Shown piece after piece: positions 4,199 through 31,441 of a stretch of DNA of 33,486 nt; the first letter of the stretch is position 1, and every line of letters starts with the position of its first letter. This stretch comes from Candidatus Micrarchaeota archaeon (GTDB taxonomy: Archaea; Micrarchaeota; Micrarchaeia; Norongarragalinales; SBBD01): contig JAZDFO010000066.1 of the NCBI GenBank assembly GCA_043807785.1, forward strand, positions 1 through 33,486, read 5' to 3'. Under the pieces are notes generated by a model, which worked only from the letters and a program-made list of their open reading frames with translations, was not told the DNA's origin and ran no database searches. A program made the translations under genes and the position numbers.

Positions 4199-4242
4199 CA
4201 ATATAAAGGTTGGTTTTCCAACTTCAAAGTTGGTTTTCCAAC
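4199..4242 (-). promoter_or_regulatory. TATA box plus two tandem copies of the palindrome GTTGGTTTTCCAAC (4209-4222 and 4229-4242, 20-bp period); candidate operator for the wHTH-MNT protein
   Basis: Both copies are identical, and each is a 5-bp inverted repeat (GTTGG/CCAAC) around TTTT. The minus strand reads CCTTTATAT at 4201-4209, about 26 nt upstream of the MNT ATG at 4178. The second palindrome ends one base before the carB stop codon at 4243-4245. Confidence 0.5.
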
Positions 4243-7200
4243 CTATGCTAAATCCGTCCCGCCAAACTTTGCATACGGGTGCAGGTCGTTGAGCGAAATT
4301 ATGCCGAGCTCTTCGCGCTTGGAGAGGGATTTGGCCAACGCGATTGCGGCAAAAGCGCTTGTGACGCACGGGATTCCCGTCTCAATGGCTGCCTTGCGGG
4401 CGGCAGGGTCGCCGCGGCCGCTGTGGCTGCGGATGCCGTCGACGACAAAAGACGCCCGGCCGTCGCAAACCATTTTCGCGCCGTCTTGCGCAGAGCCGGA
4501 AAGGACTTCGATTCCCGCAGCGGCGAGGGCGTTGACGACTGCCTTGCGCCACTTGCCGCACTCGCCGACGTACGCAGTCTTGCCAAAACGGTGCCCGGCT
4601 GCAAAAAGCGCCTTGAGGTACGCCTCCTCGAACGAGCGGCCGATTCCCATGACCTCGCCGGTGCTTCGCATTTCAGGAGAAAGCACCGGGTCCAACCCCG
4701 GGAATTTCGGGAACGGGAACACGGGGGCCTTGACGGCGTAATATCCCGCTGGAGGCGCCAGGACGGATTCCAAATCGCCGAAATAGTCGGAAAGCTTTTT
4801 CCCGACCTGCAGGGCTGCGGCAATCTTTGCAATCGGAACGCCGGTTGCCTTGCTCAAGTACGGGATGGTCCGGCTCGCGCGCGGGTTGACCTCGATTACG
4901 AAAACCTCGTCGCCCTTGACGGCCATCTGGATGTTGACAAGGCCGACGGCGCCAAGCGAGCTGCAGATTTTCTTCGAATAGGAGCAGATTCTTTCATGCG
5001 CTTGTGGGGAAATGCGGACTGCGGGGATGGTGCACGACGAGTCGCCGGAGTGCACGCCTGCCTCCTCGATTTGCTCCATTACCCCCGCGATTTTCGTGCC
5101 GGCTCCGTCGCAGAGGGCGTCGACGTCGACCTCGACGGCGTCCTCGAGGAACCGGTCGATGATGATTGCATAGCTTCCGGAGGCGCAAAGCGCATCGTCG
5201 ATTACGCGTTCGAGCTGGCCTTCGCCGTAGACGATTTCCATGGCCCTGCCGCCCAGCACGTACGACGGCCGCACGAGGAGGGGGAAGCCTATTGAGCGGC
5301 ACAGCCCGATTGCCTCGTCGCGGGAGAACGCCACCGCGCTTTCGACGGTGGGAATGCCCAGCCGCACCATGAGCGACTTGAACCGCTTGCGGTTTTGCGA
5401 CGCGTCGATGGAGTCGACGGAAGTGCCGAGCACGTTGACGCCGTTTTCGTGCAGCGCGAGGGCGAGGTTTACTGCGGTCTGGCCGCCGAACTGGACCACC
5501 GCGCCCTCCACATCGCCTTCGTTTTCCAAAACGGACAGCACATGCTCGCCGGTAAGCGGCTCGAAATAGAGTTTTCCTGCGACGTCGAAGTCAGTGCTCA
5601 CCGTCTCGGGGTTGTTGTTTATCACGATTGCCTCGTATCCCAGTTCCTTGAGGGCAAAGACCGCGTGGACAGTGCAATAGTCGAACTCGATGCCCTGCCC
5701 GATGCGGATTGGCCCGCTCCCGAGGATTGCGACTTTCTTCTTCAACGGCGATTTGGGCTGCAGGTCCCCGGGTGCGCCGTTGGCGACGGGGGGCGCAAAC
5801 TCGTAGCTGGAATAATAATACGGGGTGATTGCAGGGAATTCGCCGGCACAAGTGTCAACCATCTTGTATGACGGCAGAATTCCGTGCCGCTGGCGGAAGA
5901 ACCGGACGTTTTCCGCAGAAGTTTTGCACAGCGAAGCAAACTGTCTATCGGAAAACCCGGCGCTCTTGCACTGGCGCAATAGGGCTGGAAAATCGGGGGA
6001 CGTAATGCCTGCGGACTCTACTGATTTTTCAAGGGCGACGATTCTGGCGATTTTTTCAATGAACCACTCGTGGATTCCGGTTTGGGCGGCGATTTGGGAG
6101 GGCGAAAGCCGTCCATCAAAAAGCAGCTTCTTGATGACCGGCAGCCGCAGCTCGTTGGGCTTGAGCAATTCTGCTATGCGCTCCTGCGAGTCAAGCGCGG
6201 GAAGCTCCTTTACGCTTTCCTCGATTGATTGCAGGGCCTTGCTGAGGGCTTCCTCGAAGGACCTGCCGATGGACATCGTTTCTCCAGTGCTTTTCATGGA
6301 AGTGCCAACCGAGCGCGGGTAGCCGAGCTTCTCGAACGGCCATTTGGGGATTTTCACCACGCAATAGTCGAGCGCGGGCTCGAAGGCGGCGGACTTTCCG
6401 GTGATGCGGTTCTCGATTTGCGCCAGCGAATACCCTAGAGCGATTTTCGTCGCCACGCGGGCAATGGGGTAGCCGGTTGCCTTTGATGCAAGCGCGGAAC
6501 TGCGGCTGGTGCGCGGGTTGACCTCGACGATGAAGTATTCGCCGCTGCGAGAGTCGAAGGCGAACTGGATGTTGCACGCGCCGCGCACGCCAAGCGCGCT
6601 GATGATTTTTATCGCGCTTGCGCGCAGCATGTGGTATTCGCGGTCGCATAGCGTCTGTGAGGGGGCGACGACGATGCTTTCGCCGGTGTGCACGCCCATC
6701 GGGTCAAGGTTTTCCATGTTGCATATGGTGATGCAGTTGCCGTCCCCGTCGCGCACCACCTCGTATTCCAGCTCTGCCAGGCCCTCGAGGCTCTTCTCGA
6801 CAAGTATTGAATTGGTGGCGCTTGCGGAGAGCGCAAAGAGCGCGGCGGAATCGAAATCATCTCCCTCATGCACGATGGCAGTGCCGGTGCCGCCGAGGCA
6901 GTAGTCGGGGCGGATGATCACCGGCAAGCCGATTTTACCGACTACCGCGCGCGCAGCCACTATGGATTCCGCCCGGCCGCTTTCCGGAATGGGCTCACCC
7001 AATGACACGACGAGTTTGGAAAAGCGCATGCGGTCTTCGGCAAGCTCGATTGAATCAATCGGCGTGCCAAGCACCTTCACTCCGTATTTTTCAAACGCCT
7101 GGCGGAGCGAGACTGCGAGGTTGAGGCCGGTCTGCCCCGCCATGGTGGCGATGACGCCGTCGGGGCGCTCGCGCTCGATGATTTTCTCGACGGTCCCTGG

Positions 7201-7422
7201 GTCAAGCGGCTCAATATAGATTCGGTCTGCGGAATCGAAGTCAGTCTGGATGGTCGCCGGGTTGCTGTTGACGAGAACGACCTCTATCCCCTCCTCTTTC
7301 AAGGCGCGGCAGCATTGCGTCCCGGAATAATCGAATTACCGCCTAACGAGCTATGCTCGCTTGGTTTCGGCCGCCTGGCCGATTACAATGGGACCGCTGC
7401 CTATGACTAGTACTTTGCGCAT
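4243..7422 (-). CDS. carB: Carbamoyl-phosphate synthase large subunit, interrupted. Exon 1 is 7422..7366 (MRKVLVIGSGPIVIGQAAE), a 30-nt intervening sequence is 7365..7336, and exon 2 is 7335..4243.
   Basis: ORF 4243..7302 shows the duplicated ATP-grasp architecture of CarB (VLVNSNPATIQTDFD and IVINNNPETVSTDFD repeats) and, with the N-terminal segment added, is about 1049 aa. Hand translation upstream of the annotated Met continues as FDYSGTQCCRALKEEGIE. The missing N-terminus is found 30 nt further upstream in the same frame. Confidence 0.9.
7336..7365 (-). other. 30-nt in-frame intervening sequence in carB (ACCAAGCGAGCATAGCTCGTTAGGCGGTAA); candidate BHB-type mini-intron
   Basis: It contains TAG and TAA in frame and sits exactly between GQAAE and FDYSG. 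It folds by hand into a 3-nt bulge, a 4-bp helix and a 3-nt bulge plus an intron hairpin (details in findings). Confidence 0.6.
7393..7419 (-). repeat. Proximal copy of the duplicated carB start segment (CGCAAAGTACTAGTCATAGGCAGCGGT, encoding RKVLVIGSG)
   Basis: 23 of 27 nt are identical to 8492..8518. All four differences are synonymous third-position changes, and this copy uses the A/T-ending codons. Confidence 0.85.
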
Positions 7423-7432
7423 ATTCGGAATT

Positions 7433-8536
7433 TTAGGTATGCTCATCACCCCGCAAGACTGCCTTATGAAGCCGTTGCGCCTTAATTTTTTGAGTAAAGT
7501 TGATTTTATTGTAAAACTGACGCACATCATATTTTCGGTTAACGATAATCCCGCGCACCACTCGTTCACAATCACCAACATGGTATCGCCGTGCAACATA
7601 TGGCCGCGTCGATACTATTCCGAAGTCAGCAAGCAATTTTCGGATATCCTCCAAATACAGAATAAAATCCAAGTCAATAGAATTTGCCCGGGTAAAATGC
7701 AGGTTGACATTCCTTGCAGCGTAATTCTCCGAATAGAGCACGGAGCCGTCATCGTCGAAAAGAGCCTGCAAAAAGGCTTTCTTCAATTCCATCGTACCGG
7801 CCATTATCCAATCTGGGACGCTGAGGATGGAAAACACCTTCCTCCCACGCGGAGCGCCGGCAATTTCAAGGATGCGGCCGACAAGCGAGGAGAAACTGAC
7901 TTTGCACGTTCCGTCACCATTCGACCCGGAATAAGTCGGAAAAGAGTGAAAAACAGCCTCGACATCAGTTTTAACCCTCTCAATCAGTTGCAGGTCGCCG
8001 TTGACGTAGTCGAACTCCGCCTTCTTCGAGCTGATATTCCCGTCTCCAAAGCAATGCCCCACCAATCCTGCCAATGCAACAGATTCAATTATTGGAAAAT
8101 GCACGAAAACCTTGCCGCCTCGACTGGAAATTATTTTTAAAACCCGTGATTCGGCATCAATACAAGAAAGCCCGTGCAATGACAAGAGCTTTTTCAAAGT
8201 CGAAAGCCGGATCCCGTGCCGGCCATTTTTAAGGTGATAAAAGTAAGACTTTGAAACGCCCAATTGAACAGGCGCAGAATTGTAGTCTAGGCTCTCGAAG
8301 AGGCTGCGCCTAAACCCGTCGTCCAGCTTTATAATAAAATCTTCCGGCAAGTCAGCCAAATGTATTTCCATAGGCGCAACCGAGCATTTCAAATGCAATA
8401 AAATATCCGCACACGGATAACCACGCGGCAGAATAAACGATTTTCGAAACCTCGTTTCCGGTGCGCTGGTGAGCGCAAAGCTGCCCTCACTACCGCTGCC
8501 GATGACAAGCACCTTGCGCACTCCGGCGGGGTTCAT
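7433..8536 (-). CDS. Double-motif LAGLIDADG homing endonuclease with an HTH-like N-domain. As drawn it is fused in frame to a relic of the carB start (MNPAGVRKVLVIGSG). An independent start at Met 8371 (MEIHLADL) is plausible.
   Basis: Two LAGLIDADG motifs are present: ALAGLVGHCFGDGNI and KAFLQALFDDDGSV. The body is visibly AT-richer than its flanks. The minus strand reads ATATTTTATTGC at about 8395-8406, roughly 30 nt upstream of ATG 8371. The stop codon is at 7433-7435, 10 nt before the carB ATG at 7422. Confidence 0.85.
   Translation of the reverse strand: MNPAGVRKVLVIGSGSEGSFALTSAPETRFRKSFILPRGYPCADILLHLKCSVAPMEIHLADLPEDFIIKLDDGFRRSLFESLDYNSAPVQLGVSKSYFYHLKNGRHGIRLSTLKKLLSLHGLSCIDAESRVLKIISSRGGKVFVHFPIIESVALAGLVGHCFGDGNISSKKAEFDYVNGDLQLIERVKTDVEAVFHSFPTYSGSNGDGTCKVSFSSLVGRILEIAGAPRGRKVFSILSVPDWIMAGTMELKKAFLQALFDDDGSVLYSENYAARNVNLHFTRANSIDLDFILYLEDIRKLLADFGIVSTRPYVARRYHVGDCERVVRGIIVNRKYDVRQFYNKINFTQKIKAQRLHKAVLRGDEHT
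8492..8518 (-). repeat. Distal copy of the duplicated carB start segment (CGCAAGGTGCTTGTCATCGGCAGCGGT)
   Basis: See 7393..7419. This copy uses G/C-ending codons like the rest of the host genes, and it follows an ATG (8536) that overlaps the preceding stop codon as ATGA. Confidence 0.85.
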
Positions 8537-9063
8537 GAGGGGTTCCCCCGGCCTATTCGCTTGCGCTCCAATTCTTCCAACCGTTTGATACCAGCTGTAA
8601 AAGAATGGCGCGTGGATAGCCCCAGAGTGTGGTTCAAATAATCGAGCATGCCGGTTTTCGGGTCATGCACGGCAAGCCCGCCGGGATGTAATTTTTCGAG
8701 ATGCCGGTATACCGCCCTTAACAAATCACGGGCTATCCCCGCTTTTCTCTCGTAATCGTAGAATTTGCGAGGACCCGATTCCAAAGTCGGCTCATAGGGG
8801 TAGAAGATGGAAAAAACAAATTCGTTAGGAGGATCATTGCGCACTACAACGTGCCCCATCCGGTCCCCTAGAGTTGCCGTTTTCTCAATCATCAGCCTCT
8901 CAAGTGCTGGATTTGAGAAGAAGGCTACTGCGGATGGAGGAAGCGATTTTTCGCGGGCAAATATTGTCGTGAACTTGTAAGCACGCACAATACCCTGGGA
9001 GCCCAATCTTTCGAGTACCACCGCTAGCCCGAGCCGCCCAATGTCCTCAATTTCTCTCTTCAT
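8533..9063 (-). CDS. Hypothetical 176-aa protein wedged between carA and the carB-start relic
   Basis: This is the in-frame Met (MKREIEDIGRLG...) of ORF 8533..9159. Its ATG overlaps the carA stop as ATGA (9063-9060), and its TGA overlaps the next ATG as ATGA (8536-8533). I recognise no domain. The stretch KAGIARDLLRAVYRHLEK is only weakly reminiscent of an acyltransferase motif. Confidence 0.55.
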   Translation of the reverse strand: MKREIEDIGRLGLAVVLERLGSQGIVRAYKFTTIFAREKSLPPSAVAFFSNPALERLMIEKTATLGDRMGHVVVRNDPPNEFVFSIFYPYEPTLESGPRKFYDYERKAGIARDLLRAVYRHLEKLHPGGLAVHDPKTGMLDYLNHTLGLSTRHSFTAGIKRLEELERKRIGRGNPS

Positions 9064-10166
9064 AGCATTTTCACGAAGTCGTCGAAAAGGTAGTTTGCGT
9101 CTGCCGGGCCGCACGAGCCCTCGGGGTGGAACTGGCACGAAAATACCGGCAGCTCGCAATGGCGCAGGCCCTCGTTGGTGCCATCGTTGCAGTCCTCGAA
9201 GGTCGGCTTGACTCCCTGGGGCAAATCCTTGACGGCGTAGCCGTGATTCTGCGATGTGATGAAAATCCGTCCCGTCTCAAGGTTTCGCACCGCGTGGTTT
9301 GCGCCGCGGTGGCCGAATTTCAGCTTGTAAGTCGACGCGCCCAAGGCGTGCGCGAGAAGCTGGTGCCCAAGGCATATGCCGAATACGGGCATTTTCTTCA
9401 ATAGTCCGCGCACGGTGGAAATGGTTGGCGCAAGCAGCGCCGGGTCGCCCGGGCCGTTGGAGACAAGCAGCCCGTCCGGCTCGCTTTTTAAAATGTCTTC
9501 GCCGGATGCGTCGAATGGAAACAGCTCGACGGCGACATTCCTTGCAAGCAATTGGCGCACGATGCTTTCCTTTACCCCGCAGTTGATGAGCGCTACCTTC
9601 TTGGACCAGCCCTCCGGCTCGCGCAAGGACCTTTCCTTGCACGACACCTGCCCGACGAAGTTGATGCCGCCGTAGTCGTAGGAACGGATTTTTTCTAGCG
9701 CGCGGCTCGCAGCCTCGGCTGCGCTTTCGGATGGTTGCAGCGGCATCACTGCTGCGGGCATGACGCCTTTCTCGCGCACCCGCAGCACGATGTCGCGCGT
9801 GTCAACGCCGCAGATGCCGGGTATTCCGTGGCTCGAGAGGAATTCGCCAAAGCCCTGCGTTGACTTCGGATGGCAAGAGAACGACGAAACCTCCCTTGCG
9901 ACAACGGCGCGCAAGTGCGGCTTGGCCGATTCAAGCCATTCGCCGGAGATTCCGTAATTTCCCACGAGTGGGTAGGAAAAAGCGAGGATTTGGCCGGCAT
10001 ACGAAGGGTCGGTGACGGCTTCGGGGTAGCCGGTCATGGCGGTGGAAAAGACGAGCTCGCCGACGGATTCGGCAACTGCACCGAATTGGCTGCCCTCGTA
10101 GACGGAACCGTCACAGAGGGCCAATATGGCGCGTTGCGCACTGGATACTGGCGGGGTCGGCTTCAT
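9060..10166 (-). CDS. carA: Carbamoyl-phosphate synthase small subunit (glutamine amidotransferase)
   Basis: Class-I GATase nucleophile elbow FGICLGHQLL, the His/Glu region CQFHPEG, and 368 aa. Confidence 0.95.
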   Translation of the reverse strand: MKPTPPVSSAQRAILALCDGSVYEGSQFGAVAESVGELVFSTAMTGYPEAVTDPSYAGQILAFSYPLVGNYGISGEWLESAKPHLRAVVAREVSSFSCHPKSTQGFGEFLSSHGIPGICGVDTRDIVLRVREKGVMPAAVMPLQPSESAAEAASRALEKIRSYDYGGINFVGQVSCKERSLREPEGWSKKVALINCGVKESIVRQLLARNVAVELFPFDASGEDILKSEPDGLLVSNGPGDPALLAPTISTVRGLLKKMPVFGICLGHQLLAHALGASTYKLKFGHRGANHAVRNLETGRIFITSQNHGYAVKDLPQGVKPTFEDCNDGTNEGLRHCELPVFSCQFHPEGSCGPADANYLFDDFVKML

Positions 10167-31333: not shown

Positions 31334-31441
31334 GCCTCCGTAGCTCAGCAGCAGAGCGCCTGTCTTGTAACCCGCCGCGCCCCGGTTCCGCGCGATGGGA
31401 AGGAAAACAGGAGGTCGAGGGTGCGACCCCCTCCGGAGGCT
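31334..31441 (+). tRNA. tRNA-Thr (anticodon UGU) with a 36-nt BHB intron at the canonical 37/38 position (31370..31405)
   Basis: Folded by hand. The acceptor stem is GCCTCCG/CGGAGGC, the D arm is GCTC-AGCAGCA-GAGC, and the anticodon stem is CCTGT/ACAGG with loop CTTGTAA. The T arm is GAGGG-TGCGACC-CCCTC and the discriminator base is T. Intron bulges are UA|A and AA|A, the central helix is CUUG/AAGG (with one G.A mismatch), and the intron helix is CCC/GGG plus CGCGC/GCGCG. An AT-rich box TTAAAAAC lies about 26-33 nt upstream. Confidence 0.85.

Follow-up and report, generated by a model that had tools for sequence, protein, structure and literature searches.

Collaborative and trans homing, in which a free-standing endonuclease gene mobilises an adjacent intron that has no open reading frame (ORF) of its own, are described in the literature that we searched for phage group I introns only (PMC2790892, PMC6083498). 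Here, we propose that the 5' end of carB in a Candidatus Micrarchaeota archaeon (NCBI GenBank assembly GCA_043807785.1, contig JAZDFO010000066.1, positions 1 to 33,486; this 33,486-nt stretch is referred to as the window) is a composite selfish cassette that would consist of a LAGLIDADG homing endonuclease gene, a cassette-type carB exon 1, and a bulge-helix-bulge (BHB) mini-intron, and that would move by collaborative homing. We regard this as the best-supported reading of the locus, and the likelihood that we attach to it is a little better than even.

The closest precedent by analogy is the phage T4 endonuclease MobA with the bypass insert of gene 60, where a 50-nt insert located 20 nt from the MobA nick blocks cutting and recoded flanks do not (Bonocora et al. 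2011, as described in bioRxiv 10.1101/2022.08.31.505936). As in T4, a free-standing homing endonuclease is encoded within or beside a gene that is essential and highly conserved, the cassette includes recoded flanking coding sequence, and a short, untranslated, stop-containing insert lies tens of nucleotides away, which in T4 protects its carrier from its own nuclease and is co-transferred. The two systems differ in the fate of the insert, which in T4 is skipped by the ribosome, whereas the carB insert is a covarying BHB element without take-off and landing codons and is predicted to be removed from the RNA by the host. They also differ in the enzyme (MobA is an HNH nickase, that of carB a LAGLIDADG protein) and in the setting, as the putative carB cassette resides on an archaeal chromosome and not in a phage.

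In cyanophage S-PM2, F-CphI is reported to cut intron-less psbA at the intron insertion site, and both elements move together (cited in PMC2790892 and PMC6083498). There, too, a free-standing endonuclease gene stands beside a gene whose intron has no ORF. However, the psbA intron is a self-splicing group I ribozyme, whereas the carB intron is a BHB element of 20-39 nt predicted to depend on splicing by host proteins, and the carB endonuclease, which belongs to another nuclease family, is encoded upstream with a 57-nt exon in between. The trans homing of MobE and nrdB is similar in that a non-autonomous intron owes its mobility, by co-conversion, to a free-standing endonuclease next to it; MobE nicks off the intron site, and either geometry may apply at carB.

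On the side of RNA splicing, the literature searched very rarely reports introns in the protein-coding genes of archaea, the case found being cbf5 of Crenarchaeota, whose mRNA carries a BHB intron that is cut by the tRNA-splicing endonuclease (PMC2738675). The carB intron is similarly short, BHB or relaxed BHB, and variable in its presence and absence among lineages. Unlike that of cbf5, it is found in carB, in Micrarchaeota, other DPANN-like lineages, and Thermoplasmata, and it is associated with a homing endonuclease, a DNA-level route of intron gain that is unavailable for cbf5. The rRNA/tRNA BHB introns of I-DmoI and I-Tsp061I combine the same nuclease fold with the same intron type, but there the endonuclease is encoded within the intron and the host gene makes a stable RNA, whereas at carB the ORF is outside the intron and the host gene is protein-coding. 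In the literature searched we found no paper on a carB intron, or on a BHB intron with a free-standing endonuclease, and absence there is no proof of novelty.

The mini-intron, the endonuclease, and the duplicated carB start

The carB reading frame in the window is interrupted by a 30-nt insert (ACCAAGCGAGCATAGCTCGTTAGGCGGTAA) that carries in-frame TAG and TAA codons and is placed between GAA (E) and TTC (F) of the motif GQAAE/FDYSG (the slash marks the junction). Exon 2 opens with TTC GAT TAT TCC GGG (FDYSG), the carB stop is at 4243, and excising exactly 30 nt gives a CarB protein of 1049 aa with the GQAAEFDYSG motif intact. Every locus with a carB-linked endonuclease homologue has an untranslated insert at this same codon boundary. 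Together, the 25 distinct inserts, all at GQAAE/FDYSG, range over 20-39 nt and have lengths that are mostly not multiples of 3, and thus they cannot be translated.

How might such an insert be removed? Folded independently by minimum free energy, all 25 inserts give one architecture, in which the four bases that precede the final two of exon 1 form a helix with the four that precede the final two of the insert, the 5' junction sits in a 3-nt bulge, the remainder folds as a hairpin of 4-14 bp, and the 3' junction lies 2 nt past the helix. In the window, the central helix joins GCCG (7371..7368, exon) with CGGT (7341..7338), the bulges are AA/A and AA/T, and the hairpin occupies 7364..7342. Eight covarying helix types occur (GCCG/CGG[T/C/A], GCGG/CCGC, GCTG/CAGT, GGCG/CGTC, GGCG/CGCT, and CTGA/TCAG), with a mean of 3.9 of 4 bp for own pairs versus 2.3 of 4 bp for cross-combinations, and the hairpin sequences are unrelated between clades, yet always complementary. 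The cleavage rule H4-N1N2/N3 (2 nt 3' of each helix strand) restores GAA-TTY-GAY in 25 of 25 cases, including loci L010 and L036 (loci are numbered with L, protein homologues with P). In L036 (~4200..4222) both splice sites lie 1 nt away from their usual place (exon 1 closes with …GCTGAAT and exon 2 opens with TCGAC), and the helix CTGA/TCAG has shifted along with them. Because of this covariation and the splice-site rule, the prediction that the insert is a host-spliced BHB mini-intron is strongly supported. An earlier, sequence-only reading of this stretch had placed a 30-nt BHB mini-intron after GQAAE, and the exact GAA/TTC junction agrees with it, as do the helix and the rule.

A tRNA gene elsewhere in the window (31334..31441, plus strand; Rfam 51.7 bits, missed by ARAGORN) has an insertion of ~36 nt in its anticodon-loop region; with such an intron in the genome, the host therefore probably splices BHB-type introns. 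A candidate outer helix of the carB intron, GTAATC (exon 1, 7381..7386) with GATTAT (exon 2, 7326..7331), was rejected, as it pairs not just in many of the intron-bearing loci but also in L046, an allele naive to the cassette. The exon 2 side reads GATTAC in most loci, and in L004 both sides change jointly (ATAATC with GATTAT); this complementarity is not counted as structure because it largely follows the VI…DY codons and is present in the intron-less L046.

Upstream of exon 1 is a 367-aa ORF (8536..7433, minus strand) that starts MNPAGVRKVLVIGSG and continues as a LAGLIDADG/helix-turn-helix (HTH) protein. Its Pfam matches are LAGLIDADG_3 and a weak XRE-type HTH (HTH_31), its NCBIfam matches are to intein-type endonuclease segments only, and it has 18 homologues among 5.8 billion proteins, the named one being from Candidatus Micrarchaeota. 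Two LAGLIDADG motifs are present (LVGHCFGDG and LQALFDDDG), and in an alignment of 19 homologues G164-D165 and D261-D263-G264 are invariant, both catalytic Asp residues included. An AlphaFold model built on the homologue alignment (predicted local distance difference test score (pLDDT) 86.5, predicted template modelling score (pTM) 0.82) predicts a double-domain, monomeric LAGLIDADG fold with the catalytic acidic residues, which Foldseek matched to VMA-intein endonuclease domains, I-Tsp061I, PI-SceI, and I-DmoI (E 4e-10 to 1e-5), as well as to WhiA. The sequence search of the PDB matched only the HTH, the LAGLIDADG fold assignment having come via structure prediction and fold search. The Pfam and fold matches bear out the earlier identification of a LAGLIDADG homing endonuclease gene, and the endonuclease is probably active, because the fold is predicted to be double and both catalytic Asp residues are invariant.

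Where does this protein begin? Model residues 1-52, which comprise the exon-1 relic and the linker, are predicted to be disordered. A Met directly before a conserved E[IL]HL[SA]DLP motif is common to the window ORF and its closest homologues P0002-P0005, and the true start may be this Met56 (window 8371); translation of the ORF probably begins either from the relic carB start signal or from its own Met at 8371. At loci without carA or carB (L035, L038-L045), the endonuclease has more distant relatives with 27-33% identity. One of these, a 198-aa protein in L044, is encoded directly upstream of an ORF that resembles, as judged by eye, an Asp/Asn-tRNA synthetase.

The first ten conserved carB codons are present twice in the window. 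The upstream copy is a normal CarB N-terminus of 15 codons with host-type, GC-rich codons, fused in frame to the endonuclease ORF, and the downstream copy (MRKVLVIGSGPIVIGQAAE) is the complete exon 1 with cassette-type codons (AAA GTA … ATA GGC AGC GGT CCC ATT GTA ATC). The copies differ at 4 of 30 nt, all four being third-position changes to A in the downstream copy. The sequence-only reading, which had the endonuclease inserted after GSG of the working gene, must be revised here, as the first carB codons are duplicated and a full exon 1 lies downstream of the endonuclease. Nine codons (PIVIGQAAE) do lie between GSG and the insert, as had been counted, but the resulting 27 nt are the coding distance from the breakpoint to the intron site. 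On the DNA, the endonuclease stop (TAA, 7435..7433) is followed 10 nt later by the second carB start (ATG, 7422), and stop and intron are 67 nt apart. The related argument, which compares 27 nt with the length of a recognition site, is not supported, as it leans on a breakpoint specific to the lineage of the window.

Clear in-frame exon-1 relics upstream of the endonuclease are found in the window, L010, P0003, and P0018; decayed relics may exist in L003-L005, and none is present in L001, L007, L009, and L027. Most related loci are without a duplication breakpoint, and there the endonuclease gene directly follows the carA stop. The linker of the window ORF may consist of decayed exon 1 and former intron sequence, and it aligns weakly to an exon-1 end …GAA/AC.

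Other kinds of element were considered and rejected. In a single large BHB intron that started at the relic and ended at the 3' splice site, CCGG on the upstream side would pair with CGGT at only 2 of 4 positions, and the product (…GSGSEGSFALTSAPE-FDYSG) would lose the conserved motif. An intein does not fit, as the ORF ends …GDEHT followed by TAA at 7433, without junction residues, and a second start and exon-1 copy follow. A group I or group II intron finds no Rfam match with E <= 1 on either strand of 7200..9200, and none at gathering score window-wide.

Joint distribution and shared flanking sequence

The loci compared here comprise those of the endonuclease homologues, those from a pattern scan for the insert in one genome per species, and those from a protein search with the spliced CarB N-terminus. 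The pattern scan found the insert in 3 Micrarchaeota, 6 Methanomassiliicoccales/Thermoplasmata, and 1 unclassified archaeon; 4 bacterial matches had no CarB context and were dismissed as chance.

Endonuclease and intron occur together at 18 distinct loci (the window, L001-L005, L007, L009, L010, L022, L026, L027, L030-L034, and L036), a free-standing endonuclease gene adjoining a gene with an ORF-less intron in the window and in the 17 others. At one locus (L021) the intron is accompanied by a decayed endonuclease remnant of ~55 aa, and at 6 Thermoplasmata loci (L012, L014, L015, L016, L020, and L023) it stands alone. Neither is present at 3 Micrarchaeota loci among the matches listed in the spliced CarB search (L046, L047, and L048, the naive alleles), in which carA abuts an uninterrupted carB. 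The endonuclease alone is found at 0 loci: none of the 18 distinct endonuclease loci has an intact endonuclease beside an intron-less carB. Chance is excluded because the same arrangement recurs in 18 independent assemblies. The co-distribution that the sequence-only reading had put forward as its check is thus observed, the endonuclease never being seen without the intron and both being absent together from three sister alleles.

Decay is seen on the side of the endonuclease. In L021 (4029..4193), an internal deletion joins the N-terminal motif to C-terminal helices (MIIHLKELPESLIERNVRGMFISD…LDALCERFE) and the mini-intron is kept, and in L036 (2875..4160) the endonuclease, counted among the 18, is frameshifted and split into two overlapping ORFs. 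Such decayed and frameshifted copies fit a homing cycle. The six intron-only genomes have an intron of 29-32 nt at the same codon boundary with ~145 nt from carA to carB exon 2, and the 5' end of their carB is probably mis-annotated. In a neighbour-joining tree of 240 CarB residues, the naive alleles are sisters to endonuclease or remnant carriers (L046 to L004, L047 to L009, and L048 to L021), and the intron-only clade is sister to the endonuclease-bearing L022. The cassette loci span CarB identities down to 47%.

Composition also sets the region apart. GC content falls from 58-62% in the flanks to 42-50% across 7400..8400 and is ~50% across a neighbouring orphan ORF. The GC content of third codon positions (GC3) is 0.74 in carA, 0.75 in carB, and 0.52 in the endonuclease gene; it is 0.80 in the upstream exon-1 copy (15 codons) and 0.58 in the downstream copy (19 codons), neither value being significant alone. 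That the cassette is low in GC and its genome high suggests that it arrived fairly recently, from a Micrarchaeota donor of lower GC content.

The flanking codons point the same way in a comparison of alleles. Within 16 codons either side of the intron site, the cassette allele L009 and the naive allele L047 share 9 of 29 synonymous codons (31%), versus 136 of 194 (70%) elsewhere in carB (Fisher p = 9e-5), which shows what would be a co-conversion tract centred on the intron site. In pooled comparisons of exon 1, synonymous identity reaches 62% when cassette alleles are compared with one another (43% over the remainder of the gene), 26% when a cassette allele is set against a naive one, and 22% when both alleles are naive. 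By this comparison, endonuclease and intron appear to have moved jointly with flanking exon sequence. The sequence-only reading had seen a co-conversion tract in the A/T-shifted codons of the window exon 1 (7366-7422), of which the A-ending, cassette-type codons stand and gain from the L009/L047 tract, but the GC3 deficit by itself is not significant.

Layout of the locus

On the minus strand, the order of the window locus is carA, an orphan ORF, the relic carB start fused to the endonuclease, exon 1, the insert, and the rest of carB (Table 1). In most related loci carA forms the left flank of the cassette, and the order carA, homing endonuclease gene, carB is present in L001, L003-L005, L007, L009, L010, L022, and L025-L037.

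Table 1. Features of the carA-carB region of the window, in the order in which they are read on the minus strand.
Feature	Position	Strand	Basis and remarks
carA, carbamoyl-phosphate synthetase (CPSase) small subunit	9060..10166	minus	Pfam CPSase_sm_chain and GATase
Orphan ORF, 176 aa	8533..9063	minus	Sequence; GC3 0.55
Relic upstream carB start, MNPAGVRKVLVIGSG	8492..8536	minus	26/30 nt match to downstream copy
Linker, N-terminal extension of endonuclease ORF	8372..8491	minus	pLDDT <50 over residues 1-52
Endonuclease core, free-standing double-motif LAGLIDADG with N-terminal XRE-type HTH	7433..8371	minus	Pfam LAGLIDADG_3, HTH_31
Working carB exon 1, MRKVLVIGSGPIVIGQAAE	7366..7422	minus	Cassette-type, synonymously recoded, 57 nt
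Predicted BHB mini-intron, ACCAAGCGAGCATAGCTCGTTAGGCGGTAA, 30 nt	7336..7365	minus	Common fold, covariation, splice-site rule
carB exon 2 (FDYSG​TQCC… to stop), right flank of cassette	4243..7335	minus	Pfam CPSase_L_D1, D2, D3

A conserved GGGGTGAT is found at the end of the endonuclease gene (window 7445..7452; ~6042 in L003, ~4186 in L004, and ~5918 in L005). In L003-L005 it contains the endonuclease stop codon, 4-6 nt ahead of a carB TTG start, and looks like a Shine-Dalgarno-like site before that TTG. In the window it stands directly before, and partly overlaps, an alternative carB start (ATG, 7446..7444), from which CarB would start MSIPKIPNMRKVL. In L001 (268..1314) and L002 (726..1775) the endonuclease ORF has no stop before carB and stays in frame through exon 1 to a stop inside the intron. 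On spliced mRNA, ribosomes would there continue into CarB; this read-through could be incidental or could couple endonuclease expression to unspliced RNA.

The orphan ORF has no Pfam or NCBIfam match and no homologue among 5.8 billion or 1.84 billion proteins, and none of the related loci has a gene at its position. Its ATG overlaps the carA stop and its own stop overlaps the next ATG, both overlaps being ATGA, which suggests translational coupling at both ends.

A putative homing cassette, its alternatives, and its meaning

In light of these findings, how might the cassette work? We strongly infer that the host tRNA-splicing endonuclease and an RNA ligase would remove the intron from the mRNA, with carB staying functional. 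The homing endonuclease would cut intron-less carB at, or a few bases from, the exon 1/exon 2 junction, repair off the cassette allele would copy endonuclease, exon 1, and intron together, and the intron would render its carrier immune to the endonuclease. In the window, the invasion would have left the resident carB start as the 15-codon relic fused to the endonuclease ORF. The junction is the candidate target because naive alleles have no other carB sequence that cassette alleles lack, because it is the centre of the most conserved motif, and because there is no endonuclease-only allele among the 18 loci. The more specific claim, that the BHB mini-intron is the immunity element of a LAGLIDADG endonuclease and that the cassette spread in DPANN-type carB and left the intron-only Thermoplasmata as descendants, we hold to be evenly balanced.

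Several points count against collaborative homing. The target site is deduced solely from the sequence that is missing in the cassette allele. The tree of the endonuclease agrees broadly with that of CarB; the association is old and mostly inherited vertically, with joint gains or losses in between, and therefore the 18 loci overstate the number of independent events. Physical linkage at ~70 nt would alone yield joint gain and loss. A significant co-conversion tract is seen in 1 of 3 sister pairs, the other two being too diverged to show one. The exon-1 GC3 deficit amounts to 11 of 19 codons against an expected 14, which alone is not significant, and A-ending codons at a gene start can also arise by selection for weak mRNA structure. 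As for the intron itself, the outer exon-exon helix is absent and the 3' site lies in an unpaired stretch, which makes it a relaxed BHB.

Most of the same data would fit an active endonuclease that cuts nearby, for example where carA meets carB or in the GSG portion of exon 1, with immunity provided by its own insertion or by the recoded exon 1 and with the intron hitch-hiking within co-conversion distance. MobE and the nrdB intron are a precedent for a nick off the intron site, the ~70-nt linkage accounts for joint gain and loss, the duplication breakpoints of the window, L010, and P0018 all fall around GS(G), 24-30 nt before the intron site is reached, and the unusual degree of synonymous conservation in the cassette exon 1 could mark it as an 'immune' variant. 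We nevertheless consider such trans homing rather unlikely: no endonuclease-only allele occurs in the 18 loci over CarB identities down to 47%, the intron sits at the centre of the most conserved motif, a typical signature of a homing target, and recoded flanks alone failed to block MobA in T4. LAGLIDADG enzymes, moreover, usually tolerate wobble changes. A different proposal is that the endonuclease does not home at all, being domesticated as a WhiA-like regulator of carAB or carried as neutral cargo inherited vertically with an old intron. The fold matches include WhiA, an HTH-bearing transcription factor derived from a LAGLIDADG protein, the endonuclease itself carries an XRE-type HTH, and its tree agrees broadly with that of CarB. 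However, WhiA is not known to carry the catalytic Asp residues, both of which are invariant in the 19 homologues. The decayed L021, the frameshifted L036, and the occurrence of naive alleles among cassette alleles in the tree are in keeping with a homing cycle and not with a required host function, a GC3 of 0.52 in a genome of 0.75 argues for recent import, and a co-conversion tract is present. We judge an inert or domesticated endonuclease to be improbable.

A scenario for the origin of the locus, compatible with either mobile reading, is that the endonuclease was once intron-encoded, in frame with exon 1, and that a later duplication of exon 1 and the 5' BHB half put it outside, leaving the upstream relic and the downstream mini-intron. 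The relic would then be a remnant of an endonuclease ORF once inside the intron and fused to exon 1; otherwise it would be the illegitimate left junction of the invasion. In favour of the scenario, several homologues have in-frame, exon-1-like N-termini, that of P0003 extending as far as …GSGPVVIGQA, the relic in L010 is as long as a complete exon 1 (25 aa vs 25 aa) and ends GAA-A, the window relic is weakly alignable on to …GAA/AC, and archaeal rRNA BHB introns carry LAGLIDADG ORFs, for example I-DmoI and I-Tsp061I. It is possible but doubtful, and its account of the relic weak, given that the similarity in the window is weak beyond GSG, the DNA of L010 aligns no better than shuffled controls do, several loci are without any relic, and in none of the loci examined as DNA (P0003 being outside that set) is the endonuclease inside the intron. 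That the 30 nt stay unspliced, in a carB pseudogene or split gene or under ribosomal bypass as in T4 gene 60, strikes us as very improbable. The insert does hold in-frame stops and T4 does couple a homing endonuclease to a bypass insert, but the position of the insert is conserved in 25 genomes with carB intact downstream, its structure covaries as a BHB, and no start codon comes right after it. A gene 60-type bypass was also rejected at the level of codons: exon 1 closes with GAA or GAG, the inserts end in the triplets TAA, CAA, AAA, CAT, TAC, TTA, CTA, or GAG, and none of the 25 ends in its own exon-1 closing codon.

In addition to its bearing on homing, the carB insert as interpreted here adds a second family of archaeal mRNA introns, in at least two archaeal phyla. 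This family is tied to a homing endonuclease through a testable mechanism. For annotation, carB is called truncated or with a false start in these genomes because an intron of 20-39 nt goes unrecognised. The enzyme would target the GQAAEFDYSG motif of CarB, which is among the most conserved sequences in biology, and could serve as a meganuclease scaffold. The logic of the proposed cassette parallels that of T4 MobA with gene 60 and of collaborative homing in cyanophages, the part of the protective insert being played by a 30-nt RNA element that the host would splice out. If true, this would be the first archaeal collaborative homing, and a DNA-level route by which BHB introns enter protein-coding genes.

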